DNA of 57,225 nucleotides from Sphingobacteriales bacterium (GTDB lineage: Bacteria > Bacteroidota > Bacteroidia > Chitinophagales > JADIYW01), in assembly GCA_043757615.1 (NCBI GenBank), contig JAYVPA010000138.1:1-57225 (forward strand). Reading direction: 5' to 3'. The number at the start of each line of letters is the position of its first letter. Position 1 is the stretch's first letter. The notes beneath the pieces were generated by a model. That model ran no database searches. It was not told where the DNA came from and saw nothing but the letters and a program-made list of their open reading frames with translations. This document shows, one piece after another, positions 9,285-45,950 of this stretch. Made by a program: the position numbers and the translations under genes.

Positions 9285-9288
9285 CTTT

Positions 9289-9465: not shown

Positions 9466-9472
9466 TAATTAA

Positions 9473-23415: not shown

Positions 23416-23515
23416 CTTATGCGTAAAGATAATAAAACGAAAATAGACTTGACAAGTTTTTAAACTCATCAAGTCTTAAGTATTGTTACGGTTTATTTTT
23501 TAAGAATAAATGGTG

Positions 23516-30028: not shown

Positions 30029-30224
30029 AAATAGGGTTATTATGTTAATGTGTTATGTTTCTATCTGAAAAGAACCAAAATCTGACTGAAGGGCTTTGTC
30101 TTTTATCTGTTAATCGAATACTTATAAAGTATTATATTCAAAAACAGTTAACAGAAAAAATAATAAAACTTAGATGTTACAGGTCGTTAAATTTTGTTTC
30201 TTAAATATCAAAAAAGTTTTTAAA

Positions 30225-30256
30225 AAGGGTTTTATAAGGGTTTTATAAGGGTTTAT
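30225..30256. repeat. three tandem copies of an 11-bp unit (aagggttttat x2, aagggtttat)
   Basis: Read directly from the sequence. It lies in the 394-bp divergent intergenic region between the two T9SS cargo genes. Confidence 0.9.
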
Positions 30257-30351
30257 CAACAGCAAAGATAATTGAAATATTTTAATATGTCAACATATTT
30301 GTGAAAAAAAATATAAAATAATCACAAACGAAATTAATCGACGTAAAAAGA

Positions 30352-30382
30352 TTGACATACTCATTATTTTGATATAGCTTTG
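30352..30382 (+). promoter_or_regulatory. candidate Bacteroidota-type promoter for the M14 peptidase gene
   Basis: TTGaca at 30352 and TAgcTTTG (TAnnTTTG -7 box) at 30375-30382 with ~20-nt spacing. About 85-105 nt upstream of the candidate start codons. Confidence 0.35.
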
Positions 30383-30422
30383 CATAAACTCAATTCATAC
30401 AACCCTTTAAACACTTTATCTT

Positions 30423-32651
30423 ATGGGAAAAATCCTTTTAAATCCGGCTGATTGCTGCCGTCGAATTATGTACATAAAAAATTTAAAGATGCTCAATTCT
30501 TTTATTTTGACGTTGTTTTTAAGCGCAACATCTTTTATTTCTTTTGCTCAAAACGTCGAAAAAACTGCTGCATCTGCAGTTAAGCCTTTAGAAATCTATT
30601 CAAGAGTACAAGTTGCTGCAAACGATTTACAGCGTGCAAAAATGTATGAAGCTATCGGATTTGACCATTTGCTGATTCAGCCTGATGGTTCTTTTATCGG
30701 TGAATTTTCACAAAGCGAAATCAGCAAGATGACCGAACTGGGTGCAAAAGTGAAAGTTTTAATCCCCGATGTAGTAAAAGATTTTATAACAAAGAATAAT
30801 AAAAAGAGGATTTCAAATATCAACTCAGACCTTACCTTGCCTAACGGATTTACATATGGCAGCATGGGAGGTTATCTTACATTTGATGAAGTGGTTGCAA
30901 AGCTGGATCAACTTAGAACCATGTATCCTAATCTTATTACAATAAAACAATCCATCGGAAAAAGTACGGAGAACCGTGATTTATGGGTGGTTAAGATTTC
31001 TGACAATCCGGATATTGATGAAAATGAACCAAAGGTGTTTTTTAATGCACTTACACACGCGAGAGAGCCGGCAGGTATGATGCAAATGATTTATTATATG
31101 TGTTATATCCTTCAGAATTATAATGCAGACCCTGAAATAAAACATTTAATAGATAATCGTGAATTATACTTCGAGCCGGTGGTTAATCCGGATGGATATG
31201 AATATAACCGTTCGTTAAATGCAAGCGGCGGTGGTATGTGGCGAAAGAACCGATATAAAGTAACAAATACCACCACTACTGTGAGTAATTGCAAAACGGT
31301 TATTACAGGTACGTTATGTGATACGACATGGAAAACAACCACACCATATACAACCAGTAATTGTCGAAATATTACCACAACAAAATGTGATACTTCCTGG
31401 AATAAATCACACACTACTTATACACTTAAAAATTGCAGAAGCACTACAGTTAAAGTCTGTGATACAACATGGGGAGCTTCTGTAAACACTTATACAACCA
31501 GTAATTGCCGTAATACAACCAAGACTACCTGTGATACTACACGCACTTCCAGCTCTACTGTTTATGGCGTAGACTTAAACAGAAATTACGGATATAAATG
31601 GGGATTTGATAATACAGGAAGCAGTGCTACAAATACGTCCGATACTTACAGAGGTCCGTATGCTTTTTCTGAACCAGAACTAATTGCCGTAAGGGATTTT
31701 AGTATTTTAAAACAATTTAAAGAAGTTTCCAATCAACACACTCCAGGGAATGATCTTACCTATCCTTTTAGCTATAATAATTCAGTTGTAAATCCTGAAC
31801 AGGCATTTTATAATCTCAAGAATAGTTTAGCAACAGAAGATAACCACTTTACCATCGGTCATATGCTGCAGACTCAAGGTTATTTAGCGAATGGTGAAGC
31901 AAGCGACTGGCAATTTGGTGACCAGATTACAAAACCAAAAGCTTATTCCTGGACTCCGGAATTAGGAACCACTTTCTGGCCAACACAAGCCGAAATTGAA
32001 CCGTTGTGCTTAACAAACATTCGAATGAATGATAATATTGCCTGGATGGCTGCTGAATATTTCAGATACTCTGCAAATGCGGGTTTAAATACAACTTCTG
32101 CAACTTTCACTGTACCTGTAACAATTATTAATTACGGTGATAACAGTGGCTCAGTAGAAACTATTAAATTTATACCTTTATCTGTATCAACAAGTACATC
32201 AACCGGAAATGATTCGATATCATTAAATGGTATAACTCCGGGTATGACCACTACCAAAAATCTTACATTAAGTCTTTCAGGCTATAGTGGAACAGGAACC
32301 ATAAGTGGCGTACTGCGAATTTCATACTCCGACGGGTACACACAAGATAAACCATTTAGTTTTACGTACGCACTTCCACTCGGATTGAGAAAGCAAGCAA
32401 CAACAACTGACGCAAAAAAAGTGAATGATATCTATTCTTTATATCCGAATCCGACAGGCAGTTTATTTCATATAAATTCAACAAATAATGAAGTACCTGT
32501 TTCTGTTTCCGTTTATGATATGAATGGAAGTATTATGAAAACAATACAGAACACCAACGACGTTGACTTATCCGGTCTGGCTAACGGTATCTATACAATC
32601 AGAATAGAAACAACAAGTGGGATTATTGACAAAAAAATTACCAAGCAATAA
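30423..32651 (+). CDS. M14 family zinc carboxypeptidase with internal Cys-rich repeat insertion and T9SS C-terminal sorting domain
   Basis: HAREP (HxxE zinc site), WRKNR, GVDLNRNY, and the C-terminal YPNPTGSLFHINS...GIYTIRIET. The more likely start is 30468 or 30489 (MLNSFILTLFLSATSFISFAQN signal peptide). Confidence 0.85.
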   Translation: MGKILLNPADCCRRIMYIKNLKMLNSFILTLFLSATSFISFAQNVEKTAASAVKPLEIYSRVQVAANDLQRAKMYEAIGFDHLLIQPDGSFIGEFSQSEISKMTELGAKVKVLIPDVVKDFITKNNKKRISNINSDLTLPNGFTYGSMGGYLTFDEVVAKLDQLRTMYPNLITIKQSIGKSTENRDLWVVKISDNPDIDENEPKVFFNALTHAREPAGMMQMIYYMCYILQNYNADPEIKHLIDNRELYFEPVVNPDGYEYNRSLNASGGGMWRKNRYKVTNTTTTVSNCKTVITGTLCDTTWKTTTPYTTSNCRNITTTKCDTSWNKSHTTYTLKNCRSTTVKVCDTTWGASVNTYTTSNCRNTTKTTCDTTRTSSSTVYGVDLNRNYGYKWGFDNTGSSATNTSDTYRGPYAFSEPELIAVRDFSILKQFKEVSNQHTPGNDLTYPFSYNNSVVNPEQAFYNLKNSLATEDNHFTIGHMLQTQGYLANGEASDWQFGDQITKPKAYSWTPELGTTFWPTQAEIEPLCLTNIRMNDNIAWMAAEYFRYSANAGLNTTSATFTVPVTIINYGDNSGSVETIKFIPLSVSTSTSTGNDSISLNGITPGMTTTKNLTLSLSGYSGTGTISGVLRISYSDGYTQDKPFSFTYALPLGLRKQATTTDAKKVNDIYSLYPNPTGSLFHINSTNNEVPVSVSVYDMNGSIMKTIQNTNDVDLSGLANGIYTIRIETTSGIIDKKITKQ

Positions 32652-32675
32652 AACAAACTAAAATTATTTTATACT

Positions 32676-32709
32676 AAAAAAAACACTGCTCATGAGCAGT
32701 GTTTTTTTT
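32676..32709 (+). terminator. bidirectional rho-independent terminator after the M14 gene
   Basis: aaaaaaaa-cactgct-catg-agcagtg-tttttttt: a perfect 7-8 bp stem flanked by an A-run and a T-run. Confidence 0.75.
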
Positions 32710-32733
32710 AGTTTTTGATAATGAGATTTAAGA

Positions 32734-32763
32734 ATATTACTTCTCAGGTCACATTTGAGGGAA
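32734..32763. repeat. att-like direct repeat C (degenerate copy of the lysS 3' end), distal island boundary
   Basis: atattacttctcaggtcAcatttgAggGaa matches 43002-43031 at 27 of 30 positions. On the minus strand it reads FFPQM then TGA, so the coding potential is decayed. Confidence 0.75.
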
Positions 32764-32765
32764 AA

Positions 32766-32841
32766 AGAAAAGATGAGTGATAATTGGAATTGCCAATGTA
32801 AACATCGCGAGTAAAAAACAGTGAAAAACAAAATTTATCTT
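32766..32841 (-). pseudogene. fragment copy of the first 24 codons of the batA-like gene (start codon mutated ATG to ATA)
   Basis: 69 of 76 nt identical to 23343-23418 by my manual alignment. Minus-strand reading is INFVFHCFLLAMFTLAIPIITHLFFFPQM*, against MNFVFPWFLLALFTLAIPIIIHLFYF in the intact gene. Confidence 0.8.
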
Positions 32842-32912
32842 GTCTTGTGTTTAAAGATAGGAAATAGTGATTAGATATGAGTTAACAGTTAACAGTTTTT
32901 TTAGGAATTCGA

Positions 32913-33221
32913 TTAATATAAACTCGAAGCTAAGACAATTTGATGCACATAAAGATACTTGCTGTCTGTTTTAAAAATGATAATCCAATTATCAATTGCT
33001 ATACAACTGAAATCATTTGCGGCATAAACCTTATGCCGACATAATGCATATTTAATGGGTTGTGTGTATTTTTTGATTTTCTTTAGAAATCTATCTTTCC
33101 ATCTTTGTCCTGAACCTTTCGTATTGGTTTGTTCAACAAAGAGAGCAACATTTGTAAGTGATTTTTTAGCTAAAGCACTATATTTTACTTGCAAATGATT
33201 TCTTCTTTTGAATTTTTGCAA
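32913..33221 (-). CDS. putative ParE/RelE-family type II toxin
   Basis: ~95-102 aa and overlaps the upstream small ORF. KYSALAKKSLTNVALFVEQ resembles the ParE/RelE N-terminal helix pattern, and WIIIFKTDSKYLYVHQIV resembles the C-terminal beta strands. Assigned by pattern only. Confidence 0.4.
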   Translation of the reverse strand: MQKFKRRNHLQVKYSALAKKSLTNVALFVEQTNTKGSGQRWKDRFLKKIKKYTQPIKYALCRHKVYAANDFSCIAIDNWIIIFKTDSKYLYVHQIVLASSLY

Positions 33222-33396
33222 TTTCTTTATCTATTGATTCTTTCACTTCTTCTTCTGTAAAAAACTCATCATTCTCATGTTCTTTGATAAGTAAAGAAAT
33301 TTCTTCATCAGTAAATTTTCTACCAATGCCGAAAGCCAAATCATGTGCAGTAAGTTTACGAATAGACTCTTTAGTGGATGTTTTAGAAATTGTCAT
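33178..33396 (-). CDS. putative antitoxin (small acidic protein upstream of the toxin-like ORF)
   Basis: 72 aa, charged. Overlaps the downstream toxin-like ORF, which is classic type II TA gene organisation. Confidence 0.35.
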   Translation of the reverse strand: MTISKTSTKESIRKLTAHDLAFGIGRKFTDEEISLLIKEHENDEFFTEEEVKESIDKEIAKIQKKKSFASKI

Positions 33397-33630
33397 AAAT
33401 AAATTTAAGAAGAAAAAGTTAGAATTGCAATGGGGATTTTGTCTGAACCACAGATTATACTGATTTAAGGATAGTTATGATTTTTATTTACTCACTAAAC
33501 ATTTTAGATTTACTGTACAAATCGTCAATATCTAATTTGTCAGTCATTTTTATAAATAATTTCTGCTTTTTATGTTTGAAGTAATTTTAAACAAAAACAA
33601 ATAAATTTCTTGTTTCTTCACTAAATTTAT

Positions 33631-34020
33631 CTATATCAGTAACATATTTAATTCGTGTAGAAAACTGTATATACTTTTTTTATTTAAATCAGGATTTAAG
33701 TAACACCATAAAAGAACTTCTTCATTTTCTATATTATAATGATGAGCGTTGTATTTATTTCGCATATTTATTATTTTATTATGCAAACCACTCATGATAT
33801 TTTTAACATTTTTATTCTCTTCAGAAAATATCGGATTATTATTCAAGAAAGTCAAAATCTGTATCCATTCAATTTTTGTTCCATCACGAGAAGCAAAACA
33901 TTTTCCGTACGTTATTATTGCTGTTATTAATAATTTGTGTTTTAATTTTTTTGATAATTTTTCATCTTTAATTGAACTTAACTTCTGAATATCTTCTATG
34001 CATTCTATACATATATCCAA
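33631..34020 (-). CDS. hypothetical protein, possibly the 3' part of a frameshifted gene
   Basis: The frame is open upstream to 34119 without an ATG (the track start is TTG). A separate short ORF (MDDLGETRYDNELGNILL*) starts at 34163 in another frame and ends at 34107, so one indel in 34110-34119 would fuse them. Confidence 0.35.
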   Translation of the reverse strand: MDICIECIEDIQKLSSIKDEKLSKKLKHKLLITAIITYGKCFASRDGTKIEWIQILTFLNNNPIFSEENKNVKNIMSGLHNKIINMRNKYNAHHYNIENEEVLLWCYLNPDLNKKSIYSFLHELNMLLI

Positions 34021-34182
34021 ATCTTTACAAAGTAAATTATATGCTTTGTATTGTTTTGAAAATTTAGAATTAATTATGACATAATTACATGGCTTGCCAT
34101 CAATTCTTACAACAGGATATTACCAAGTTCGTTGTCATATCTTGTTTCTCCTAAATCATCCATAATAGAAATTGTTTATTTC

Positions 34183-34208
34183 TACTTCTCAGGTCGCATT
34201 TGCGGAAA
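34183..34208. repeat. att-like direct repeat B (copy of the lysS 3' end), left boundary of the integrase-bearing island
   Basis: tacttctcaggtcGcatttgcggaaa matches 43006-43031 at 25 of 26 positions. The minus strand still reads FFPQMRPEK*, with synonymous CGA for AGA and TAG for TAA. Confidence 0.8.
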
Positions 34209-34316
34209 AAAGACCAGTCATTAAGGTAAGAGATTTATTTATAATAGGTTATGAGGATTTTCATTTTTCGAGTTACAAATAAGTAACAAGTTGGTGGAAG
34301 TAATAAGATGTAAAAT

Positions 34317-34739
34317 CTAAGTATATTCAATTTCAAATTTTCCATTAGATGTATCTAAAAATAATTCTGATGTAACATCAATATTTGACCATCTAATAAT
34401 AAATTGACTAGTTGAAAAATATTTATTTAATAAATCTTCGACGTGCAATCTTGCCTCGTTGGTATTATCTATATCAACATCACTTTCTCCAGTTAGGATA
34501 GCTCCTCCACAGGCATAAACTTTAACTAAGTCTTTATTATATCTCTTTAATGAATTAATAATAAACTCCTCCATATCATTGCTATGATTAGGACTTGGTT
34601 GATGTATCATTGAACCTGCCTTTTGAATAGGGTCATAAATACCAACTGCTATACATGGTCCCATACCATTTGAGCAAATTATTTCAGGTGATTTTGCATA
34701 TCCTACTTCAAACATATTAATCTGTATACCATATGTCAT
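34317..34739 (-). CDS. CheD-like cysteine deamidase-fold protein (outside any chemotaxis context)
   Basis: INMFEVGYAKSPEIICSNGMGPCIAVGIYDPIQKAGSMIHQPSP aligns with CheD of T. maritima (IGIGEYAVMKNPGVIVTLGLGSCVAVCMRDPVAKVGAMAHVMLP) and of B. subtilis. The catalytic Cys and His are present, and Thr is replaced by Ser at position -6. The later GGA motif (VYACGGAIL vs KIAGGASMF) is conserved. 140 aa, similar to CheD. Confidence 0.65.
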   Translation of the reverse strand: MTYGIQINMFEVGYAKSPEIICSNGMGPCIAVGIYDPIQKAGSMIHQPSPNHSNDMEEFIINSLKRYNKDLVKVYACGGAILTGESDVDIDNTNEARLHVEDLLNKYFSTSQFIIRWSNIDVTSELFLDTSNGKFEIEYT

Positions 34740-34759
34740 TTTAATAAATATTCATTAAG

Positions 34760-37700
34760 TTAAAAAATAATATTTACAGCTACTGCGCCTTTAAAATTGA
34801 AACCAATATTAAAATTAACGCGTTGATTATATTTAAATTTTGCCCAATCAATATCAGGATTATCTGATTTACTAAAAAAGAGTCTGTCACCTGTTTTATC
34901 TCGTTTTATAAATCCAAAAGAGGATTCAATTTTGGTTATTACACCACTAAATAATTTTTCTCTATTATTTTCTTTTAGAATTAACCTAACCTGACTTCTG
35001 TTTTTAAATTTCACGGTTGACAAGAATTCAAATACATCATTGTATTCTGCTAATTCATCTAAAATATAGCAACACCTACCATACAAGAATTGTTCTTCAT
35101 GGTTATTATCATTCTTAGTAAATGATTTCCTTAAGTAGTGTTTTATATCTATGTAATCAGGATTGGCTTCTCTCATCAAGAATGTGGAATATAGATAATT
35201 TAAATCTTTCGAATTTGGATTTTCTTCTAAACATTTCCTAAGTACTTCTTTGGCTTTGTCTTTTGCATTATTCTTATTATAGAATTTACACAACCGTATT
35301 GCAATATAAACACTATTAGGATTTGCAGTAAAAGCATTTTCAAGTATTTTTAATGCTCTAGGATGTTCACTTATTATTGTATTAAATTCTGCTTCTGTAT
35401 CAGCAATGTAACTTTCCAAAGGAAAATCTCGTTTTGCATTCTTTAAATTCTTTTCAAAATCTTTAATTTTACTTTCTATACTTTCTTGTAACGCGTCTTT
35501 ATTAACTGCATTTTTTATATCTAATACTAAAGCTTTTAGCAGAGTATGATAAGGATATGCACTCTTATTCTTAGCTGAATTTAGTTTGCCACAAATTTCT
35601 TTTATTGTATCAAGATATTTTTTCTGTTTAACTGTATTATCTGTCGTTTCAAACTTTCTTAAATAAAACTCAGCCCTAGAGTGTAAAATATTTGGATTCT
35701 TTTCATCTAATTCTTGAGCCTCTTCTAATAGCTCATTTGCTCTGGTTAAATCTCCATCATGAGAATTCATTTCAAAAATTGCTTCTTGCAAGAATAAATT
35801 AGAATCATTTTTCAAATCCTCTCGAATATTTCTGTATATCAATCTAACATATTTAGGATTGCTGAAAATTGCTTTTAGATTTTTTGCTTTAATCATTGCT
35901 ATATATGCAATCCTGTCACTTTCATAGTCAATATCTAAATTATTGAGTATTCTAATCATTTTATCATATCTATCTTCATCATTTCTTAAGACTTCCTCGA
36001 ATAATATTTCAGCAATATGTTGATGTCTAGTTTCTAATGCATAATCATTTATCGAATACTTCCAATTATAGAATACAATATTCTCTAATGGTTTAAATAA
36101 ATGCTCTTTGAAGTAACTAAATCCAATATTATGAACTCTAGATATTAAGCCTACTCTTGTATAGACACCCAATCTGTGTAGTATAGCAATTGTTAAGTAT
36201 AATTGTTTTGCATCATCATTAGAAATTGATTGATATTCTTTGCTTACGATTTCAGCAAATGGTCTTCCTTGTGTAGCTTCATGTAAAGCAACCAATAATT
36301 GTCTTCCTGCTCTTTCTGATAATTCCTTAATCCTTTCTTCTTTGGATTTACTTGTTAAATAACCAAGAGAATTATTTTTTTCTAATAAATCTAATAGTTC
36401 AATAATTTCTTTATCATTTAGATATTTTAGTTCGTATTCTACAGTTACATACTCCTCTAATGATTTACATTCTGTATTCCAAGTGCTATATCTTTCTGCA
36501 CAAATAATAGTTAGTAATATTTTGTCTTTTTTTGCTTTATCTATTATTTCCTCTATATCATTTACGTGTTCAGAAGGATTGTCTATAAATAAATATATTC
36601 TATCTTTTAGATAGTAATATAATTCGTTAATTGGCTCATATCTTAATTTTACATCATCATTTAAAAACAAGCAAATCTTATCAAAATCAACAGCCGCATC
36701 CCAAGCCAATCTTTTTAATAGAACAGATTTTCCTGATCCAGCCTGTCCTTTAATTAAATAAAAATCATTTGGACTAATTCTGTTTAACTCTTCATCAAGA
36801 AATATCTCTAGTAATAAGTTGTCCTTTATATACCTATTGCAATCCATATTTTTAATTATTGGATCCCAATTATTAAAATAACCCTTATAGAAATTCTTAG
36901 GGTCTGTATCTTTTGATTTAAGATTTGAATAAACATACTCAATATCTAATTCTAAGAAACTTTTTAGACTCTCGCTAATATTAATGTCTTGACGTTGAAC
37001 CTTAAATTTATTAATTATCGGATGAGAAACAGGACTAAGGATTGTAGCCAATTTTCTGTCCGCAATAGAAATTTGACTATTGAGAGTATTAAGAAATTGT
37101 TCAAATGACATCTTTAAAGATGATATTTTTTTGCTTTCCCACAGTTTTGCTTCTTCGTCTTTAATGTATGGTCCAATGAGATATGACCTTGGTACATTTT
37201 CATGAGAAGAGAAGGTTTGTTTAATGATAGTTCTTATATCTACGTCATCAAAACTAAATCCAACAAAGAGAAAAGGATTTTCATACTTGTAATCTTTAAG
37301 CTTATCAAATAACCTATCTCTATTTGTTTTATGGTCTATATATTGTTCTGGAGATAATATCAATGGAATTTCAACATTCTGTGCTTCTGATATACAACCA
37401 TGTAATTTTATGTAAAATAAATCGTTATTGGATTTTATTTGGTCATTTACCTTTTGACCATTCTTAATAAAGGGAACTATATTTTGAATTCTTTCTTTAT
37501 TAGTATCATAAGCCCTTTCAATAGTTAAGTCATAGTTTACAGTAAATATAGCCCTCCATCTGAAATTTGGTATTAACTTATGAAATTCTGTTGGGTTAAA
37601 GCCACTAAATATTTCATAGATATATTTTTGAACATCTAGTAAATCTGATTCACTAGTACATAGTTCTGCTACATGCTGTAAAGAAGCATTTTTAAAATCA

Positions 37701-37858
37701 TCTGATAAATATTTTTCTACTAATAAATCTCTTAAATCATTTCCAAGCGGTATTTTTTTACCATTCATATTAGTTGCCCCAAACGATGCACCTGCACCTA
37801 AAAATAAAACAACATTTCCTGTTTTTATTTGCTCTAAAAGATGCTTAGGTATTTCCAT
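34760..37858 (-). CDS. SIR2-like (SIR2_2 type) / P-loop STAND NTPase / TPR-like repeats / C-terminal cold-shock-like domain protein; candidate anti-phage sensor-effector
   Basis: SIR2_2 pattern: GNVVLFLGAGASFGA, FTVNYDLTIERAY, IKLHGCI, FLFVGFSFDD. Walker A is IKGQAGSGKSVLL and Walker B-like is IYLFIDNPSE. TPR-like helices include NPNILHSRAEFY, NPNSVYIAIRLCKFY and NPNSKDLNYLYSTFLM. The C-terminus FSGVITKIESSFGFIKRDKTGDRLFFSKSD...QRVNFNIGFNFKGAVAVNI follows the CspA pattern. I prefer the start MEIPKHLLEQ at 37858; the track ORF extends to 37963. Confidence 0.75.
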   Translation of the reverse strand: MEIPKHLLEQIKTGNVVLFLGAGASFGATNMNGKKIPLGNDLRDLLVEKYLSDDFKNASLQHVAELCTSESDLLDVQKYIYEIFSGFNPTEFHKLIPNFRWRAIFTVNYDLTIERAYDTNKERIQNIVPFIKNGQKVNDQIKSNNDLFYIKLHGCISEAQNVEIPLILSPEQYIDHKTNRDRLFDKLKDYKYENPFLFVGFSFDDVDIRTIIKQTFSSHENVPRSYLIGPYIKDEEAKLWESKKISSLKMSFEQFLNTLNSQISIADRKLATILSPVSHPIINKFKVQRQDINISESLKSFLELDIEYVYSNLKSKDTDPKNFYKGYFNNWDPIIKNMDCNRYIKDNLLLEIFLDEELNRISPNDFYLIKGQAGSGKSVLLKRLAWDAAVDFDKICLFLNDDVKLRYEPINELYYYLKDRIYLFIDNPSEHVNDIEEIIDKAKKDKILLTIICAERYSTWNTECKSLEEYVTVEYELKYLNDKEIIELLDLLEKNNSLGYLTSKSKEERIKELSERAGRQLLVALHEATQGRPFAEIVSKEYQSISNDDAKQLYLTIAILHRLGVYTRVGLISRVHNIGFSYFKEHLFKPLENIVFYNWKYSINDYALETRHQHIAEILFEEVLRNDEDRYDKMIRILNNLDIDYESDRIAYIAMIKAKNLKAIFSNPKYVRLIYRNIREDLKNDSNLFLQEAIFEMNSHDGDLTRANELLEEAQELDEKNPNILHSRAEFYLRKFETTDNTVKQKKYLDTIKEICGKLNSAKNKSAYPYHTLLKALVLDIKNAVNKDALQESIESKIKDFEKNLKNAKRDFPLESYIADTEAEFNTIISEHPRALKILENAFTANPNSVYIAIRLCKFYNKNNAKDKAKEVLRKCLEENPNSKDLNYLYSTFLMREANPDYIDIKHYLRKSFTKNDNNHEEQFLYGRCCYILDELAEYNDVFEFLSTVKFKNRSQVRLILKENNREKLFSGVITKIESSFGFIKRDKTGDRLFFSKSDNPDIDWAKFKYNQRVNFNIGFNFKGAVAVNIIF

Positions 37859-38262
37859 ATATAATTTGATTAATGCTAATATAGTGAAAATAATATATTT
37901 TAATAGGTAAGCCTTTATATATGCAGGAATTTTTCTAGCAGTCATAACCGCCATTAGTAGCATCGAAAAAAGCCTGGAGAAATAAAAATTAAGGGATAAA
38001 ATTATATTAGAATCTACTTATTAATTTTAAGTAAAAATTTGTGTAAATCCACAAAGCATGGATTTAACTATATGTCGGTGATAGCTCGTGCAAAACAATT
38101 TATTTTAATTATAAAAGCTATAATGCATATAAATAGATAGGAACCCAAATAACATATAATTAGATAATAAAAATGGAATCTTATCTGTATAATAATTACC
38201 TCTGATTATCAGATAGTTTATTGTATATATTCGACAATAAAATTCATCTGTTATAATATTTA

Positions 38263-39111
38263 TTAAGGTTCTGTTACAATAGCTTCATCATTTGCAGACT
38301 CTATATCGTAATATAAATAAAGGCTATTTTCTCTATACATTTTATATCTTGCCTGTTTGAAACGGAATGATTTTAATATTGCCGACATTTTGGTTTGTAC
38401 TTCGCTTATAACTTCTCTATCATAAAATGATTCACCTGTAAAACTAATTACAGTATTTTTGTTTCCTGACAACCCAATAGAAGTACCAATCGTAGAAAAT
38501 TCGTTTGCTGCAATTATTGCATAATTTCGTCTCATTTTAGGAAATTCGTTTCTTTGTAGTATTTGTGCTCGTTTTTTTAATTCTATTGATTTTGACCTTA
38601 TTGATGGATTCGCACTTTGCATGCCAGCATCAATTATTTTACCCCAACCATAAAATATTCCTAGTTCCAATATTAAATTATCAACAGAACCACTAAAGGC
38701 ACTACGATTAAAAGGCTTTTTAAATGATTCTAATTCCATGTTCAATCGTGCTTCATCTACTTCCATTCCGTCAACCGTTATTTCACTATTAACTTTGTAG
38801 TCACTAACTGTATCAGAATAGATTATTGAATTGGTATTACTACTCGTTAAACTAATATTAGTATTAGTATTATCATTAGGATTTGATTTTATAATTAACC
38901 AAAATATGTAGACGAATAATAATACAAAAGCGACTGCTAAAATATTACCACCTTTGCCGAGTGTAATTTCCTTTTTAATAAAATGTTTATTCTTGATAGC
39001 ACCACCGCAGTTACTGCAAGAAACATATTCATTATGGATATAGTTCTCTGTTACTTCGAATTGTTCCTTGCATTTGGAACATCTTACGTTTTTTACTTTT
39101 CTTTTTTCCAT
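38263..39111 (-). CDS. zinc-ribbon / single-TM membrane protein with uncharacterised C-terminal domain
   Basis: N-terminal CSKC...CSNC four-Cys ribbon, a TM helix ILAVAFVLLFVYIFWLII, and a ~200-aa C-terminal region with no family I recognise. Confidence 0.55.
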   Translation of the reverse strand: MEKRKVKNVRCSKCKEQFEVTENYIHNEYVSCSNCGGAIKNKHFIKKEITLGKGGNILAVAFVLLFVYIFWLIIKSNPNDNTNTNISLTSSNTNSIIYSDTVSDYKVNSEITVDGMEVDEARLNMELESFKKPFNRSAFSGSVDNLILELGIFYGWGKIIDAGMQSANPSIRSKSIELKKRAQILQRNEFPKMRRNYAIIAANEFSTIGTSIGLSGNKNTVISFTGESFYDREVISEVQTKMSAILKSFRFKQARYKMYRENSLYLYYDIESANDEAIVTEP

Positions 39112-39232
39112 AATTTATCTTATTAGTTATATCTAAATATAATCAAAAACACATTACCCTATATGTGGGGTGGTATAAAATTGAAAAAATGTTTGCCTTT
39201 ATAATGTGGAAGCCGCTGATAAAAAGTTTTTA

Positions 39233-39445
39233 ATGTTGTTTGGTGCTCATTTAAGAAAAATCCGGGAATCAAAATCTATTTCTCAGGATAACTTATCCTA
39301 TGCATGTGACATTGCCAAAAATCAAGTAGGACTAATTGAACGAGGGGAAATAAATACTTCTATTGATACTGTCCGCAAACTGGCAGAAGCACTAAATATT
39401 CCAATAGAAGCACTATTTAAATTTGAATACAAGAAATCTAAGTAG
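39233..39445 (+). CDS. XRE-family helix-turn-helix transcriptional regulator
   Basis: LRKIRESKSISQDNLSYACDIAKNQVGLIERGEINTSIDTVRKLAEALNI is a canonical HTH_3/XRE pattern. The track start at 39206 is GTG; the ATG at 39233 is more likely. Divergent from the zinc-ribbon gene. Confidence 0.8.
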   Translation: MLFGAHLRKIRESKSISQDNLSYACDIAKNQVGLIERGEINTSIDTVRKLAEALNIPIEALFKFEYKKSK

Positions 39446-39537
39446 TTTCTAGTATACTTTCTTTTAAATAATATAAATACTCTTATTGCATATACATTAG
39501 TTTACTAGCAACATAATAAATACCTAAATTAAGAGAA

Positions 39538-40476
39538 TTATCTGTAAATATTCTTTAATAAATTAACAGCAGTATCGACGTTATAAAATATATTTTCATC
39601 ATCGAACTGCTTATTTGAACTTCTTAGTTCTCTAACATTTGTTCTTAAATTACTTCTTGTGTTCATTTTGTACATACCTTTGTTAAAATTATCTTGTATA
39701 TGTTCTTCAATAAATAATTCTTCTGAACAATTACTTACTGCATAATGTGCTAGTGCGTACATTAATGTTGTTTTATTCTTAAAAGGTAAAAGTTTTTTTG
39801 TGTATATTTTTTCGATATTAAAATAAATAATAAAAAGCTTGTTAATGTAAAAATTGTAGGTATTTGTTTTAAGCAAATCTTTTAAAATTAGTTTTTCACC
39901 ATTCAAATTTTTTATCCGTTGCATTAATCTATTCTCAATCCTTAAAACCCTTTTCATTTTAAAAAAATCTGGAATAGAAATTTTTTTATTTTTCAATTCA
40001 GCTATCTTATCATACAATATAATTTCATTTGTTGTTGATGTAAAATATATTGATGGCGTTTTTGTAGCATACAAAATTTTATCATGGTTGCGATACTTTT
40101 TACACCTTAGTATGTATTTCAGTAAATCTTCACTTACAATTATATTCATTGCTATATCTAAGCGTGTTACAAATGCTTTAGAAAAATCTACTCCAAAATT
40201 CTTAGATAATTTCTTGACTAGAAACTTAAAATCATTTAAGGATGGGCAAGCTAAATTGTTACCTAGTAATAACTTTGTAAAACTTCCCTCAAATAAGATA
40301 GTGAAGGGCATTTGTAGTTTATTAGGATTATTTATTATTCGAAATTCAGCTCCATTAAACAGAAACAGAAACACCTCATTTCCGTTCTTTGAGGTATATC
40401 TCTTCCCCAACTGTACTTTTTCACTTACATCTGGAAATTTATTTAACTGTAGTAAAAGTCTTATTGTATCTATCAT
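39538..40476 (-). CDS. putative replication initiation protein (phage/plasmid gene II/X, Phage_CRI-like)
   Basis: The N-terminus MIDTIRLLL, VTRLDIAMNI and VLRIENRL resemble my memory of Phage_CRI-type Rep proteins. Position in the mobility module supports this. Weak, pattern only. Confidence 0.35.
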   Translation of the reverse strand: MIDTIRLLLQLNKFPDVSEKVQLGKRYTSKNGNEVFLFLFNGAEFRIINNPNKLQMPFTILFEGSFTKLLLGNNLACPSLNDFKFLVKKLSKNFGVDFSKAFVTRLDIAMNIIVSEDLLKYILRCKKYRNHDKILYATKTPSIYFTSTTNEIILYDKIAELKNKKISIPDFFKMKRVLRIENRLMQRIKNLNGEKLILKDLLKTNTYNFYINKLFIIYFNIEKIYTKKLLPFKNKTTLMYALAHYAVSNCSEELFIEEHIQDNFNKGMYKMNTRSNLRTNVRELRSSNKQFDDENIFYNVDTAVNLLKNIYR

Positions 40477-40509
40477 TGTTCATTATTAGCGTGAATAATT
40501 GCAGTATTA

Positions 40510-40956
40510 TTATAAGATAGATGACTTAATCATTTTTTTATTTTTTCTTATTTCTGAAAAAATAAAATTAAACTGTTTGAAAAAAACTGTTTGAAAAATT
40601 AATTGATAATAATTTTTCAAATCTTTAAAAACAAAGATTTCAAAAAACAATTTATTTTTATCAGTTTTTATTATTAATAAATCATCCATACCTATTACAT
40701 AACCATACGCAAAATTAAATGCTCCGGGACATTCTTTCAAGAAAAAGATATTTGCTTTTATTTTTTTTGCAATAGTTAGTTTATAACAATTCATTCTAAA
40801 GCTATAGTTCTTATTTAGACGTTTACTCCGCTTGACAGAAAAATCAATCCATTTCAATTTTACATTTTTTGAAGCAACTATCTTATAAAAATCCTTTGTA
40901 ATTCTTTTGAATAAATAATAATCTGATATTGGGTTACTAATTAATCTATTATTCAT
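40510..40956 (-). CDS. hypothetical protein (island)
   Basis: 148-aa ORF whose start abuts the stop of the upstream HTH gene (40958), suggesting an operon. No recognisable motif. Confidence 0.45.
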   Translation of the reverse strand: MNNRLISNPISDYYLFKRITKDFYKIVASKNVKLKWIDFSVKRSKRLNKNYSFRMNCYKLTIAKKIKANIFFLKECPGAFNFAYGYVIGMDDLLIIKTDKNKLFFEIFVFKDLKNYYQLIFQTVFFKQFNFIFSEIRKNKKMIKSSIL

Positions 40957-40957
40957 T

Positions 40958-41239
40958 TTACTTCTTTTTATTGATTGTTATTGAATTAGCTAATTCCTCC
41001 ACGGTTTTTATCTTTTTTGCGAATGCGTATTTCCTTAGGTCTTTCTTTTTGAAATACATTTGTTTGCCATTGGGTTTGTAGTGAGCAATTTCTCCTCTAC
41101 TAGTTAGCTTGTGGAGGGTACTAATAGAAATACTCAAGAACTTCGCTGCATCTTCTGTGCAAACGGGTTCTTCTGTGTAAGCTCTAAGTCGTCTGTTTAT
41201 TCGCTTGAGGATTACGTCTAATTGATGAATTTTATTCAT
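40958..41239 (-). CDS. excisionase-type (MerR-like, HTH_17) DNA-binding protein
   Basis: AAKFLSISISTLHKLTSRGEIAHYKPNGKQMYFKKKDLRKYAF is the typical excisionase-family HTH pattern. 93 aa, near the integrase. Confidence 0.7.
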   Translation of the reverse strand: MNKIHQLDVILKRINRRLRAYTEEPVCTEDAAKFLSISISTLHKLTSRGEIAHYKPNGKQMYFKKKDLRKYAFAKKIKTVEELANSITINKKK

Positions 41240-41325
41240 TCTTATACAATTGTTGGTGTACCATATAATACTCCAAACTTGAAAGAAAAAACAGGAATTT
41301 TATAAAAAGTTTAGGTAATAGGATT

Positions 41326-41802
41326 TTACATCAGAAAAGGGTAATGTCTTTTGATGTTTTCAAGATGTACTTGAAATGCTTCTGAGGTATCAAAATCTTC
41401 TCTCTGCTCTTTTGTTGTCAAATTGAACATTTTCCATATGTTATATATTGTAGATGGCGGGATAAATATATTCTTCTTTTCTAAGAGTCTACTTAACTCA
41501 TTCTTATTTAATTCATACTTTTCTGCTGATAATTTTAAAACCAATTTTAACTTAGCAAAATCTGTTCTTTGGGTTAATTTGTATTTATTTCTTAATCTTT
41601 CTTTAATACCGTTTTTGCCTTCTTCTTTATATATTTTTTGATAACTATAATAAGTAGTTCTTGAAAGCCTTAAAGATGTTATGTTCTTTTTTAGATACCA
41701 TTTATATATTTTATATTCCGTCCTGATGCATTCAATTAATTCAACTTGACTTATAAACTTAGTCTTAGGGCTTACTACAACTGGAAATCCTTTATTACTC
41801 AT
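41326..41802 (-). CDS. hypothetical HTH-like protein adjacent to the integrase
   Basis: 158 aa and basic. LSRTTYYSYQKIYKEEGKNG resembles transposase/terminase-type HTH. Ends 4 nt before the integrase gene region. Confidence 0.4.
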   Translation of the reverse strand: MSNKGFPVVVSPKTKFISQVELIECIRTEYKIYKWYLKKNITSLRLSRTTYYSYQKIYKEEGKNGIKERLRNKYKLTQRTDFAKLKLVLKLSAEKYELNKNELSRLLEKKNIFIPPSTIYNIWKMFNLTTKEQREDFDTSEAFQVHLENIKRHYPFLM

Positions 41803-41805
41803 AAT

Positions 41806-42864
41806 CTAAAATATACTTGGAATTTTATTTACTGCATCTGTTTTAGTTTTGTCTATAATCTTAGTATAAACCTGAGTACTTTTTATGTCTTTATGTCCTA
41901 ATAATTTTTGTACTGTAAATATATCTACTCCATTATTTAATAATTGTGTAGCTGCAGTATGTCGTGAACTATGAAAAGATAATTGTTTTGTGATACCAGC
42001 TTTCTTTAGCAACTCTTTTGCACATCTATTCACACTTGAATGGTCTTTTGGCAAATCAAATACATAATCATCGTTTTCTTTTCTGTCACCAATAAGTTTT
42101 ACTGCACTTTCACTTAATTCAAAATAGTTAAATGCAGATGTTTTAATCTGTTTTTTCTTAACTCTGCAACCGTTTTCACTTACTTCAATATTACTCCATT
42201 TAAGGCTCATAATATCTGAAACTCGCAGACCGGTATAACATGCAAATAAAAATGCTCTCTTAACTTCATTATTATAAAACTGAGTATTAAATACTTTCTT
42301 CATTTCTTCAATTGTAAGAAAATTCTTTTCTGTTTCTGATTTTTGTGGGGTGTCTATTTTTCTTGTCGGATTTGATGGGATAACATCATCTTTTACTGCT
42401 TGATTTAAAACCGCATTAATTTTCTGATAATACGTTCTGATTGAATTAGGTGACAATCCTTCATCTTTCAAAAAAGAAAAAAAACTCTCAAACCATTTCT
42501 TATCCATGTTCTTAAACTTTATTCTCCTATTAGTAAAATTATTAAGATGTGATAGGACACTATTCCAGCTCTCTTGTGTTTTAGTATTTTTTTTCTTCAT
42601 TTCATATTTGAAATATTCTAAAAAGTCCAAGTCGTTGTCTGATTTCTTTTTAATTCCATAATCCTCATTGATTAACTCTAATTCTCTCGTAGCTACAATA
42701 CGGTTTAATGCTTCTTTTATGAGTCTTCTTTCTTTAGATGTATTAGATTCCTTTATAGTTAATCCTTTTATGGTTTCTGTCCACCTATCATCGCCCATAT
42801 AGATATCCATGTAGAATGAGGTATCTCCATTTTTTAAATTCCTTTCTCTTAATTTAATTGCCAT
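41806..42864 (-). CDS. tyrosine-type site-specific recombinase/integrase (Bacteroidota phage-integrase family)
   Basis: TGLRVSDIMSLKWSNI (box I Arg) and HSSRHTAATQLLNNGVDIFTVQKLLGHKDIKSTQVYTKI (HxxR...H...Y). N-terminal SAM-like domain. 140 nt from the lysS stop. Confidence 0.9.
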   Translation of the reverse strand: MAIKLRERNLKNGDTSFYMDIYMGDDRWTETIKGLTIKESNTSKERRLIKEALNRIVATRELELINEDYGIKKKSDNDLDFLEYFKYEMKKKNTKTQESWNSVLSHLNNFTNRRIKFKNMDKKWFESFFSFLKDEGLSPNSIRTYYQKINAVLNQAVKDDVIPSNPTRKIDTPQKSETEKNFLTIEEMKKVFNTQFYNNEVKRAFLFACYTGLRVSDIMSLKWSNIEVSENGCRVKKKQIKTSAFNYFELSESAVKLIGDRKENDDYVFDLPKDHSSVNRCAKELLKKAGITKQLSFHSSRHTAATQLLNNGVDIFTVQKLLGHKDIKSTQVYTKIIDKTKTDAVNKIPSIF

Positions 42865-43001
42865 ATCTGTCGCATTTACTTATAACAAAAATAACAAATA
42901 AGTAACAAAATCACTCAGAAATAACAAAAAATATCAAGGTATGGTTATTCAGAATAATCATAACTAATTGATAATTAACTAATTTAACTGTCTATTGTTG
43001 G

Positions 43002-43031
43002 ATATTACTTCTCAGGTCTCATTTGCGGAAA
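43002..43031. repeat. att-like direct repeat A (functional 3' end of lysS), right island boundary
   Basis: atattacttctcaggtctcatttgcggaaa. The minus strand encodes ...FFPQMRPEK*. It is repeated at 34183-34208 and 32734-32763. Confidence 0.8.
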
Positions 43032-44534
43032 GAATAAAACTTCCTGTATAGACGACTGATTGCTGAATAACATCGCGAGTCTGTCGATGCCGAAACCAAT
43101 GCCTGAGGTTGGCGGCATGCCATATTCCAAGGCACGCAGGAAATCCTGGTCTATAAACATCGCTTCATCGTCACCGCGCTCCTGAAGTTTTAACTGGTCT
43201 TCAAAGCGTTCACGCTGGTCAATCGGATCATTTAATTCCGTATACGCATTCGCAATTTCCTTTCCATTTATCATCAGCTCAAAACGCTCTACCAAACCTT
43301 CTGTCGTGCGATGTTTTTTTGTCAGGGGCGACATTTCCACCGGATAATCAATAATGAACGTCGGCTGGATATAATTATGTTCGCAGCGTGCACCAAAGAT
43401 TTCATCTATCAGTTTTCCTTTGCCCATGGAACTATCTGTTTCAATATGCAATTGTTTACAGACATCACGCAGTGCAGCTTCATCCATTGCAGAAACATCA
43501 AAACCTGTATACGTTTTTATTGCTTCATAAATGGAAATACGTTTGTACGGCGCTTTAAAGTTTATCATGTTCTCGCCCACTTCCACCGCAGTTGTTCCAT
43601 TTGTATCTACACACGCTTTTTCCAGCAATTGCTCTGTGGTTTCCATCATCCAGAAATAATCTTTATACGCCACATAAAATTCCAGTACGGTAAACTCAGG
43701 ATTATGCGTTTTATCCATTCCTTCATTTCTAAAATTTCTTGAAAACTCATACACCCAGTCAAAACCTCCAACTATCAATCTCTTCAGATATAATTCATTC
43801 GCGACACGCAGATACAAAGGAATATCCAGCGCATTATGATGCGTCATAAATGGTTTTGCAGCCGCGCCGCCGGGAATGCTTTGCAGCACAGGTGTGTCCA
43901 CTTCTAACGCACCTTTATCATTTAAAAATTCACGGATGGAATTCATCATTTTGGTGCGTTTAACAAATGTTTCGCGCACTTTTGAATTCACCACTAAATC
44001 TACATAACGCTGACGGTAACGCAATTCCGGATCAGAAAAAGCATCAAATACATTTCCTTCATCATCTGTTTTTACAACAGGCAATGGACGCAGTGATTTT
44101 GCCAGCAAGGTAAATTCTGTTGCATGAATAGTTATCTCGCCCATCTTTGTAATAAAAGCATATCCTTTTATCCCAATGAAATCACCAAGGTCTAATAATT
44201 TGGAGAAAAGTACATCGTACAAAGATTTATCTTCTGTCGGACAAATATCATCGCGGCGAACATAAATTTGTATACGGCCCGCACTGTCCTGGATTTCCGC
44301 AAACGTTGCTTTTCCTGCAGGGCGTGCAGCCATCAATCTGCCGGCAACACAGACTTCCTGGTAATTCAAACGGTTCTTCGCACCATCTTCCAAAACCTCT
44401 TCCTTGTAATTTTCTTTTATCTCTTTAGAAGTCACACTTACAGGATATAAAGGCGCAGGATATGGATCTACACCTAATGCTTTTATTTTTTCCAGTTTCT
44501 CACGACGTACTTGTTCTTGCTCAGAAAGTTGCAT
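43005..44534 (-). CDS. lysS: lysine--tRNA ligase (class II)
   Basis: 509 aa. RNFRNEGMDKTHNPEFTVLEFY (motif 2) and GIGFGIDRLAML (motif 3), with an OB-fold N-terminus. Confidence 0.95.
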   Translation of the reverse strand: MQLSEQEQVRREKLEKIKALGVDPYPAPLYPVSVTSKEIKENYKEEVLEDGAKNRLNYQEVCVAGRLMAARPAGKATFAEIQDSAGRIQIYVRRDDICPTEDKSLYDVLFSKLLDLGDFIGIKGYAFITKMGEITIHATEFTLLAKSLRPLPVVKTDDEGNVFDAFSDPELRYRQRYVDLVVNSKVRETFVKRTKMMNSIREFLNDKGALEVDTPVLQSIPGGAAAKPFMTHHNALDIPLYLRVANELYLKRLIVGGFDWVYEFSRNFRNEGMDKTHNPEFTVLEFYVAYKDYFWMMETTEQLLEKACVDTNGTTAVEVGENMINFKAPYKRISIYEAIKTYTGFDVSAMDEAALRDVCKQLHIETDSSMGKGKLIDEIFGARCEHNYIQPTFIIDYPVEMSPLTKKHRTTEGLVERFELMINGKEIANAYTELNDPIDQRERFEDQLKLQERGDDEAMFIDQDFLRALEYGMPPTSGIGFGIDRLAMLFSNQSSIQEVLFFPQMRPEK

Positions 44535-45872: not shown

Positions 45873-45876
45873 TGAG

Positions 45877-45950
45877 TGGTCCCGCATGGGCTCGAACCAT
45901 GGACCCCCTGATTATGAGTCAGGTGCTCTAACCAGCTGAGCTACAGGACC
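45877..45950 (-). tRNA. tRNA with CAT anticodon (Met, or Ile2 if lysidine-modified)
   Basis: The reverse complement GGTCCTGTAGCTCAGCTGGTTAGAGCACCTGACTCATAATCAGGGGGTCCATGGTTCGAGCCCATGCGGGACCA folds as a cloverleaf. It has a 7-bp acceptor stem, a D-loop AGCTCAGCTGGTTAGAGC, the anticodon loop CTCATAA and a T-arm GGTTCGAGCC. CCA is not encoded. Confidence 0.9.

Follow-up and report, generated by a model that had tools for sequence, protein, structure and literature searches.

The DNA downstream of lysS in a Sphingobacteriales bacterium (assembly GCA_043757615.1, contig JAYVPA010000138.1) raises the question of how the end of an essential gene came to be present three times, and whether the DNA between the copies derives from one integrative element or from two. 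The original prediction, made from the sequence of the window (the whole stretch of 57,225 nucleotides analysed here), was of an island inserted in the lysS 3' end by two successive integrations, the outer one since decayed. The site-specific insertion in the lysS 3' end is upheld by the present analysis; the two successive integrations are not. The favoured reading, with a probability of about 0.65, is that the 8.8 kb between the two lysS-proximal copies constitute a complete site-specific integrative element, and that the 1.4 kb beyond represent a recombined lysS-bat interval, not a second such element.

Repeats of the lysS terminus

The lysS gene (43005-44534, minus strand) is intact and encodes a class II lysyl-tRNA synthetase of 509 aa (Pfam tRNA-synt_2, 3.5e-89, and tRNA_anti-codon) with the same C-terminus as in congeners, FFPQMRPEK. 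In the 57-kb window, TACTTCTCAGGTCNCATTTGCGGAAA is found in three direct copies, at 32738-32763 (two mismatches), 34183-34208 (none) and 43006-43031 (none); 100 dinucleotide shuffles give an expectation of no copies by chance, and the predicted repeats are thus genuine. The attL-type copy, c3 (43002-43034), comprises the working 3' end of lysS, FFPQMRPEK and stop, with a few nucleotides downstream. The attR-type copy at the distal end of the 8.8-kb element, c2 (34179-34211), still reads FFPQMRPEK and ends in a TAG stop, which is also the stop in the congener G043. The third, c1 (32734-32765), reads FFPQM-stop-PEK-stop, with TGA at the Arg codon, and is fused in frame to codon 24 of a bat-like gene in a hybrid junction. 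Compared with c3 in 30-nt frames, c1 is identical at 27/30 positions and c2 at 26/30. The coding capacity ascribed to c3 and c2, and the 27/30 identity and TGA ascribed to c1, were all reproduced, as was the AT-richness of the DNA between the repeats: its GC content is 27.5% (34209-43004) and 26.1% (32764-34182), compared with 41% in lysS and 36-38% in the flanks. The nearby tRNA-Met gene (45876-45950) is uninvolved, again as predicted.

A composite of this kind might arise artificially, if the metagenome assembly were chimeric and had collapsed at the 26-nt repeats; the genome is in 246 contigs, and contigs may be mis-joined at short repeats. However, Logan contigs from four independent runs (SRR23617274, SRR23617272, SRR22198270 and SRR22198271) are 100% identical to the window and cross all three junctions, with c3 spanned by L147 and L148 and both c2 and c1 by L150 and L151, so that a binning or assembly artefact is scarcely credible. 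These contigs end at 32683, which places the onward link to the M14 gene outside their cover, and those recovered represent the integrated form only; neither an excision product nor a circle, nor an empty site from the same species, was seen.

Genes of the 8.8-kb element

The segment between c2 and c3 (34209-43004) encodes nine open reading frames. A tyrosine integrase of 352 aa (41806-42864, minus strand; Phage_integrase 1.5e-31, Phage_int_SAM_5 6.3e-22) begins 140 nt past the lysS stop, consistent with the description of the two genes as abutting, and its residues R214, K241, H298, R301, H324 and Y333, the catalytic R-K-H-R-H-Y set, are unchanged across a 12-sequence alignment. Four further genes follow on the same strand: a 158-aa HTH protein (41326-41802) with weak likeness to the IS481 transposase N-terminus, kept in the closest relative, L044; an excisionase-type HTH_17 protein (40958-41239; HTH_17 3.1e-11, TIGR01764 'excise' 3.8e-9, PHROG excisionase matches), a candidate recombination directionality factor; a 148-aa backbone protein (40510-40956) without family match, with positional counterparts in L044 and L045; and a 312-aa rolling-circle replication initiator of the Phage_CRI (G2P-type) family (39538-40476; PF05144 8.6e-10), which is found at every family locus examined. 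The XRE/HTH_3 regulator (39206-39445; HTH_3 9.7e-11) is the sole element gene on the plus strand, and is alike in position and orientation in L044, L046, L047 and L048. Next to it, a 282-aa zinc-ribbon membrane protein (38263-39111, minus strand) corresponds, by position only, to a 285-aa gene in L044.

The two genes nearest c2, both on the minus strand, are variable cargo, probably anti-phage, a role suggested by domain matches only. The larger product (34760-37963, 1067 aa) is a SIR2-STAND NTPase-TPR-cold-shock-domain protein (SIR2_2 3.7e-24, nSTAND_NTPase5 1.2e-23, TPR, CSD; PADLOC ThsA-type SIR2 2e-19), a candidate anti-phage effector/sensor. The smaller (34317-34739, 140 aa) is a CheD-like protein, matched weakly by NCBIfam CheD models (2.6e-6, far under the family cut-off).

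These gene families suggest how the element would move. The integrase would recombine the element-borne lysS terminus with the chromosomal sequence coding for FFPQMRPE, and K and stop where present, with element DNA restoring the end of LysS. The HTH_17 protein may direct excision, the Phage_CRI Rep may replicate the excised circle or possibly nick it for transfer, and the opposite-strand XRE protein would act as the switch. The segment 34209-43004 would be mobile in its present host.

Both ends carry a candidate arm-binding site for the integrase. The 15-mer ACAAATAAGTAACAA has only two exact copies in the 57-kb window, both on the plus strand, one 97 nt inside c3 (42894-42908) and the other 67 nt inside c2 (34275-34289). 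L045, L047 and L048, loci whose integrases are just 43-49% identical, also carry this motif, ~78 nt inward of their distal att. Its family form is TTGTTACTTATTTGT, placed ~70-80 nt inward of the distal att; L067-L071, which are more distant members, did not yield it.

A lysS-targeting family in Bacteroidota

The element belongs to a previously unnoticed clade of lysS-targeting elements in Bacteroidota. In a FastTree phylogeny of 85 integrases, ten lysS-adjacent integrases fall within a clade of 11 (support 1.0), and the present integrase lies inside it. Clade members are 39-83% identical and are hosted by Chitinophagales and Flavobacteriales, with lysS directly upstream of the integrase gene in L044-L050 and L067-L071. 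Wherever att pairs could be defined (L045/L046, L047, L048, L067 and L070), the FF codons of FFPQMRPE mark the start of homology. At L047 and L048, whose LysS is extended at the C-terminus, the element supplies a surrogate gene end of 229-231 nt, a clear case in which as much as 229 nt of surrogate coding sequence come with an element and an essential gene stays intact. The relatives' elements span 5.0-9.0 kb and finish after their cargo, which across the family includes a SIR2-STAND protein, a giant nSTAND3 protein, and a methylase with a GHKL ATPase. The family is compact and easily recognised (integrase, Xis-type HTH, rolling-circle Rep and XRE switch in 5-9 kb, with interchangeable cargo) and lands in an invariant FFPQMRPE-coding gene end. 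It offers a fixed genomic address at which to seek new defence genes in Chitinophagales and Flavobacteriales, and an integrase/att pair that is a candidate for building site-specific integration tools for these bacteria, in which genetic work is difficult.

Empty sites are found in relatives, as had been expected. In the ~28 loci examined from relatives, the ~1.5 kb that follow lysS contain no integrase, and a scan of the genus gave none above 39% identity. Where the island is missing, lysS adjoins bat or M14; in the congener G006, the M14 peptidase flank follows lysS directly. The island designation thus draws on a catalytic tyrosine recombinase, on c2/c3 repeats that keep LysS at 509 aa and on empty sites in related genomes.

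It is also conceivable that a single 10.3-kb island extends from c1 to c3, with c2 as internal sequence that has no role in recombination. The entire 32.7-43.0 kb interval is AT-rich, and c1 and c3, which match at 27/30, have in common an extra ATAT prefix and a TAA stop. Against this, c2 is closer to c3 in the core (no mismatches to the 26-nt pattern, versus two for c1) and has an arm motif as far away as is typical of the family, the size and gene content of relatives fit c2-c3, and c1 runs into a fragment of a chromosomal gene. Such a larger island is very improbable.

Relationship of the element to known systems

The lysS 3' end is a documented target of integrative and conjugative elements in Streptococcus, such as ICE_SsuGZ1_lysS (Ambroset et al. 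2016, PMC4701971). This weakens the earlier remark that aminoacyl-tRNA synthetase 3' ends are reported as attB sites far less often than tRNA genes. The streptococcal elements are alike in their tyrosine integrase, in targeting the same end of the same gene, and in their short direct repeats of the lysS terminus; moreover, their repeat is more internal in longer lysS genes (PMC4701971), which parallels the 229-nt surrogate end described here. They differ in being large, conjugative and found in Firmicutes, whereas the present element is 8.8 kb, resides in Bacteroidota and has a Phage_CRI Rep, with conjugation or relaxase genes undetected. In the nine element ORFs, Pfam and NCBIfam gave no match to a relaxase, coupling protein or type IV secretion system (Rep as a relaxase aside), and the element is not classed as an ICE or IME. 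Among Flavobacteriales, the 10K genomic island of Riemerella anatipestifer, whose integration and excision have been shown experimentally, is similarly small (~10 kb) and integrase-driven, but targets tRNA-Arg with a 53-bp repeat (PMC6764341).

The combination of integrase, Xis and Rep is reminiscent of actinomycete-type AICEs, though a transfer gene was undetected in the Pfam profile search. AICEs such as pSAM2, and integrative plasmids, have a core of Int, Xis and rolling-circle Rep with an excised replicative form; AICEs also encode an FtsK-like Tra protein and integrate at tRNA genes. The integrase, opposite-strand HTH regulator, Xis and Rep likewise resemble the layout of PICIs, which are phage satellites, with a packaging gene undetected in Pfam and PHROGs and three ORFs without family match. 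An inovirus prophage, suggested by the Phage_CRI Rep, is not supported, as a Zot/pI-type morphogenesis ATPase and small coat proteins were unmatched in Pfam and PHROGs. Among the best 80 IMG/VR loci, lysS is present in none and Rep in one.

Origin of the segment between c1 and c2

Close to half of the 1419-nt segment between c1 and c2 has a chromosomal counterpart. Positions 32786-33430 share 69% identity, over 655 nt, with the native lysS-bat intergenic region of G043, and the gene order (o72, o102, bat 5' end) is common to both; the homologous part amounts to 665 of the 1419 nt. It includes two overlapping small ORFs of 72 and 102 aa (32913-33396, minus strand), in a toxin-antitoxin-like arrangement and without family match. 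At 69% identity, common ancestry of this cassette and the G043 gap is clear. The 752 nt adjoining c2 (23.9% GC) lack a counterpart in the G043 gap and hold a frameshifted gene similar to phrog_8440 (33631-34165, minus strand), consisting of a 129-aa ORF and an 18-codon upstream piece in another frame. This stretch may be all that is left of an older element.

At its other end, the segment carries a dead bat-like 5' end (32766-32860, minus strand), comprising codons 1-24, with ATG changed to ATA, and the upstream region; it is 91% identical to the functional sequence at 23343-23418. The functional bat-like gene (21376-23418, minus strand) comes directly after lysS in most congeners (at least 10), and the hairpin-containing intergenic sequence upstream of it (~23446-23480) is that found right after the lysS stop in G044, G011 and G024. 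Within this gene, TGCGGAAATAGAA at codons 22-26 is a look-alike of att CATTTGCGGAAAGAA, and it is at this sequence resembling the att core that bat codons 1-24 are joined in c1; 11 nt of the look-alike, ATTTGCGGAAA, are exact in G012/G019. Between the lysS terminus copy and bat lies a 9.1-kb block (23516-32651) containing an M14 carboxypeptidase with a T9SS tail (30423-32651, plus strand) and a 2170-aa gene (23516-30028, minus strand), present at the lysS locus only in G006 among the ~28 congener loci examined.

Under classical tandem accretion, as originally proposed, an older lysS-targeting element would have lost its integrase and most of its genes, leaving a CIME-like remnant between c1 and c2, and the present element would have come second, at the lysS-proximal att; the older element would by then have acquired the bat fragment and small-ORF cassette as cargo. 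The three direct att-like copies have the right order and orientation for this, the c1-c2 segment matches the element in AT-richness, the phage-associated gene without G043 counterpart adjoins c2, and an element beside a decayed relative at a gene 3' end is well documented (review PMC5704250). However, the G043 gap to which the 665 nt are syntenic is flanked by no repeats, the c1-c2 segment contains neither an integrase or Rep remnant nor an additional att copy, including between the phage-like gene and the cassette, and recombination with the bat look-alike would still be required to explain the bat fragment. Furthermore, what adjoins c1 is bat codon 24 and not an element arm, and the window scan found no arm motif near c1, which argues that c1 is not the outer att of an older family element; its anatomy is that expected of a lysS-terminus/bat hybrid junction. 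Accretion with a decayed outer island is thus disfavoured and appears unlikely.

Tandem accretion itself is known from ICESt1/ICESt3 and CIMEs at the fda 3' end of Streptococcus thermophilus, as outlined in a review (Pavlovic 2004; Bellanger 2011; via PMC5704250). In that outline, three direct att copies likewise lie at a housekeeping-gene 3' end, with an integrase-bearing beside an integrase-less unit. Unlike the S. thermophilus case, the integrase-less unit here is in large part chromosomal flank, has a truncated neighbour gene at its end and is without the arm motif. The locus is not classed as a CIME composite: three att copies are present, but the integrase-less unit does not have the make-up of a decayed same-specificity element between genuine att sites. 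The hybrid c1 junction cautions that a third att-like repeat does not necessarily signify accretion of a second element.

The favoured reading instead takes the 1.4-kb c1-c2 segment to be a stretch of an alternative lysS-to-bat intergenic region, with its truncated bat 5' end joined to c1 through a single recombination of the lysS att sequence with the look-alike in bat codons 22-26. This event would be either integrase-mediated at a secondary site or a homology-facilitated illegitimate recombination, and would leave two lysS-bat intervals in tandem, one G043-like and the other G006-like with the M14 and 2170-aa genes. Flank capture of the specialised-transduction type and illegitimate recombination both fit bat codons 1-24 and the cassette being joined at an att look-alike, and, judging from the junction anatomy, either would explain c1. 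More tentatively, and possible rather than probable, the family integrase may itself recombine the lysS att with ATTTGCGGAAA, such that the element picks up and moves adjacent chromosomal DNA. If so, the lysS-bat interval would be a recombination hot spot, and this would account for its mosaic make-up across the genus, with gaps of 79-967 nt, small cassettes and the 9-kb M14 block. Between c1 and the convergent M14 gene lies a terminator-like 30-nt inverted repeat with perfectly adjacent arms (32663-32722).

The lysS terminus and its copies

The original prediction placed a composite island in the end of lysS, built by two successive integrations with the segment between repeats c1 and c2 as the older, decayed one; the element between c2 and c3 stands, but a second island of its kind is not supported. 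Searching the 57-kb window for a 26-nt pattern from the lysS terminus gives exactly three hits, all in one orientation, against none in 100 dinucleotide shuffles, confirming the three direct copies. Copy c3 (43006-43031) is where lysS itself ends (509 aa; minus strand, 43005-44534), c2 (34183-34208) reads FFPQMRPEK*, and c1 (32738-32763), with two mismatches to the pattern, reads FFPQM*PEK*. The reported AT-richness between the repeats is also borne out, with a GC content of 27.5% in the c2-c3 unit and 26.1% in the c1-c2 segment, versus 41% in lysS and 36-38% in the flanks. The window is an entire contig of a 246-contig genome assembly, and Logan contigs from four sequencing runs (SRR23617274, SRR23617272, SRR22198270 and SRR22198271) match it with 100% identity; since these span the junctions (L147 and L148 cross c3; L150 and L151 cross c2 plus c1), the arrangement is not an assembly artefact. 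The Logan contigs stop at 32683, within a hairpin left of c1. Public records assign the LysS proteins of congeners to Chitinophagales.

A complete integrative element between c2 and c3

The unit between c2 and c3 (34209-43004) is a complete integrative element, with putative mobility in its host. In order from lysS, searches of Pfam, NCBIfam, PADLOC and PHROGs show a tyrosine integrase, an HTH protein of 158 aa, an HTH_17 protein of the excisionase type, an ORF of 148 aa that matches no family (Pfam, NCBIfam, PADLOC), a rolling-circle Rep of the Phage_CRI (G2P) type, an XRE regulator encoded on the other strand, a membrane protein with a zinc ribbon, a 1067-aa protein with SIR2, STAND, TPR and cold-shock domains, and a 140-aa protein that weakly matches CheD. 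Alignment of the integrase with 11 homologues shows no variation at the catalytic R-K-H-R-H-Y positions. Pfam, NCBIfam and PHROGs searches detected none of the genes that define ICEs, IMEs or inoviruses and no PICI-type packaging gene, with three ORFs of the element matching no family, and its Int-Xis-Rep core is presumably most like that of integrative plasmids or AICEs.

An exact 15-mer, ACAAATAAGTAACAA, has only two copies in the window, in the same orientation, 67 nt inward of c2 and 97 nt inward of c3. Three other elements, with integrases only 43-49% identical, have the motif about 78 nt in from their distal repeats, and in the closest relative it lies 43 nt upstream of the integrase gene. 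Its position, together with what is known of lambda-type integrases, makes it a candidate arm-type integrase-binding site.

The cargo pair (34317-37963) comprises the 1067-aa protein, with SIR2, nSTAND5 NTPase, TPR and C-terminal cold-shock domains, followed by the 140-aa protein. PADLOC matches only the SIR2 part (ThsA-like) and the CheD-type matches of the 140-aa protein are weak (2.6e-6, far under the family cut-off); the pair is not a catalogued system.

A viral origin of the element was considered and rejected. The 80 best integrase relatives on IMG/VR viral contigs are at most 41% identical and include no close relative of the lysS-targeting clade described below; none lies beside lysS and only one is accompanied by Rep. 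Within the genus, the best integrase relative found in a genus scan is 39% identical, and none is located at lysS. A 10-kb integrase-driven island has been experimentally characterized in Riemerella, at tRNA-Arg (PMC6764341).

A lysS-targeting integrase clade

The element belongs to a first-described clade of a known element kind, with a useful fixed address and variable, probably defensive cargo; the literature searched holds no description of lysS-targeting elements in Bacteroidota, which is no proof of absence. The top integrase homologues (83%, 49%, 45%, 43% and 42% identity) are all encoded directly downstream of lysS, and their loci all share the Int/HTH_17/Phage_CRI backbone, most with an opposite-strand XRE gene too. 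The cargo varies among them, including a DNA methylase with a GHKL ATPase, a GYF_2 protein and a 1414-aa nSTAND3 protein. When one genome per species was scanned, lysS lay upstream in the five closest loci only (39-45% identity), from a Flavobacteriales MAG, Moheibacter, Marixanthomonas spongiae, Flavobacterium macrobrachii and Lutibacter. Ten lysS-adjacent sequences fall within one clade of eleven (support 1.0) in a tree of 85 integrases; the eleventh member (L072, 3224-4237) follows greA and a HIT-family gene, without lysS within 3 kb, a possible target-site switch within the clade.

Both ends are defined at six loci, where the elements measure 8.8 kb (this window), 8.6 kb (L045), 5.0 kb (L047 and L048 each), 5.7 kb (L067) and 9.0 kb (L070). 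In 6/6, repeat-to-repeat homology starts exactly at the FF codons of FFPQM(R/K)PE. LysS of L047 and L048 is extended at its C-terminus by about 60 residues, and the element there carries a surrogate gene end of 229-231 nt (L047 repeat pair, 6611-6839 and 11629-11857). Surrogate and displaced original are identical over the first ~50 nt and then diverge (82% identity overall), and the displaced end remains at the element's distal side as a dead ORF with a weak TrmB hit. Distal repeats also reach beyond the FF codons in L067 (pair at 9603/15278) and L070 (9532/18533), where divergent codons resembling the extension follow. Streptococcal ICEs are reported to target the 3' end of lysS, with a more internal repeat where lysS is longer (PMC4701971). 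In Winogradskyella (L050, 8760-10001) and Lutibacter (L071, ~8700-10001), the distance from the lysS end to the integrase is 1.2-1.5 kb, versus 100-160 nt in other loci, and is occupied by small ORFs; these may be additional genes of the element or a further layered insertion.

Empty sites and the origin of c1

In all of the about 28 lysS loci examined in relatives, the ~1.5 kb downstream of lysS is free of an integrase gene. The predicted empty site, with lysS directly beside the 32.7-kb flank, was found in one fairly distant congener (G006), though its LysS is only 82% identical to that of the window. There, a convergent M14 peptidase gene lies 160 nt beyond lysS, and the order g20132, bat, 2170-aa gene, M14, lysS, HAD is the window order without 32.7-43.0 kb. 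An exact-protein look-up of LysS found no conspecific genome or empty site, the 90% clusters of M14 and Int have one member each with no conspecific, and scanning metagenomes for the c1 flank returned 0 matches.

The third repeat, c1, is a recombination scar with a neighbouring gene. Window positions 32766-32841 are 91% identical to 23343-23418, codons 1-24 of the bat-like gene (21376-23418), with weaker similarity beyond them into the region upstream of that gene. In at least 10 congeners the bat-like gene directly follows lysS, at gaps of 79-967 nt. The 611-nt gap of one of these, G043 (LysS 93% identical), aligns with window 32786-33430 over 655 nt at 69% identity, and both share the order lysS end, 72-aa ORF, 102-aa ORF, bat upstream region, bat start. 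The window downstream of c2 is thus what a congener carries downstream of an intact lysS. This stretch ends after bat codon 24, where c1 continues in frame; at this point bat reads TGCGGAAATAGAA versus CATTTGCGGAAAGAA in att, and bat of congeners G012 and G019 matches att at ATTTGCGGAAA (11 nt exact).

This synteny and the bat fusion argue against a decayed second island between c1 and c2, as do the results of searches for mobility features: no arm motif was found near c1, and no integrase or Rep remnant in any frame of the segment. Only 752 nt beside c2 lack a counterpart in G043, and these hold a frameshifted gene resembling phrog_8440. That an element can accrete beside an integrase-less relative is textbook knowledge for ICESt1-type elements (PMC5704250). 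A mixed form of such accretion, in which an older element that had earlier captured the flank left the 752 nt behind, may account for this stretch; given the same missing motif and remnants, it appears unlikely. Two further candidate att copies were rejected: a fourth decayed copy within 32770-34175 (best Smith-Waterman score 18, reached by 41% of shuffles) and a remnant near 23.5 kb, at the far end of the M14/2170-aa block, whose alignment to congener lysS ends is at chance level.

The broken gene (33631-34165) starts MDDLGETRYDNELGNILL in one frame and continues in that of a 129-aa ORF, whose only match is phrog_8440, of unknown function. This ORF has no other match, and the 72-aa and 102-aa ORFs none at all, in Pfam, NCBIfam or PADLOC; from layout only, the latter pair might be guessed to be a toxin-antitoxin system.

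The lysS-bat interval

Left of c1 lie, in order, a terminator-like hairpin, M14, the 2170-aa gene and bat. The 9.1-kb block (23516-32651), encoding an M14 carboxypeptidase with a T9SS tail and the 2170-aa protein, lies between lysS and bat only here and, among the ~28 relatives' loci examined, in G006 (L063), and its proteins are 57-61% identical between the two, versus 80-82% for flanking core proteins. The hairpin intergenic sequence just upstream of bat in the window is the sequence directly after the lysS stop in three congeners (G044, G011 and G024). The block, which sits exactly between a lysS-terminus copy and this hairpin, itself resembles an old insertion at that same position.

The locus is best read as two alternative lysS-to-bat versions in tandem, one G043-like (cassette and bat start) and one G006-like (lysS terminus, M14, big gene, hairpin, bat). 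A single recombination between the lysS att core and the bat look-alike would yield the c1 junction, by any of three routes. The element might have excised from a G043-like host via the bat look-alike instead of the distal att, taking the flank along, and then integrated with it into lysS of a G006-like host. Alternatively, a chromosomal fragment with the integrated element could have entered by lysS homology and joined illegitimately at the look-alike, or the M14 block could have inserted at the bat site of a G043-like genome, with bat homology as its anchor, and the element could have integrated separately. All three differ from the decayed-island model. They give the same product and are not separable, as both arrangements occur among congeners of similar LysS identity and the duplicate spans only 76-100 nt, the 76-nt copy being too short to root.

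Across the genus, the lysS-to-bat gap is a mosaic hot spot (L005-L013, L052-L060). Congener gaps measure 79-80 nt (hairpin only), 133, 290, 470-475, 611 and 967 nt and differ in their small genes; none contains an integrase or a second att copy. Window 33437-33484, a 48-nt module, is present again in the gap of G012 at 87.5% identity. The G024 bin has two lysS-bat loci, on contigs C6 and C19 (L005 and L056), each 83% identical to the window lysS, one with an 80-nt hairpin gap and one with a 475-nt gap; as bin contamination is 6%, they are probably from two strains or species, with both gap types coexisting in one sample.
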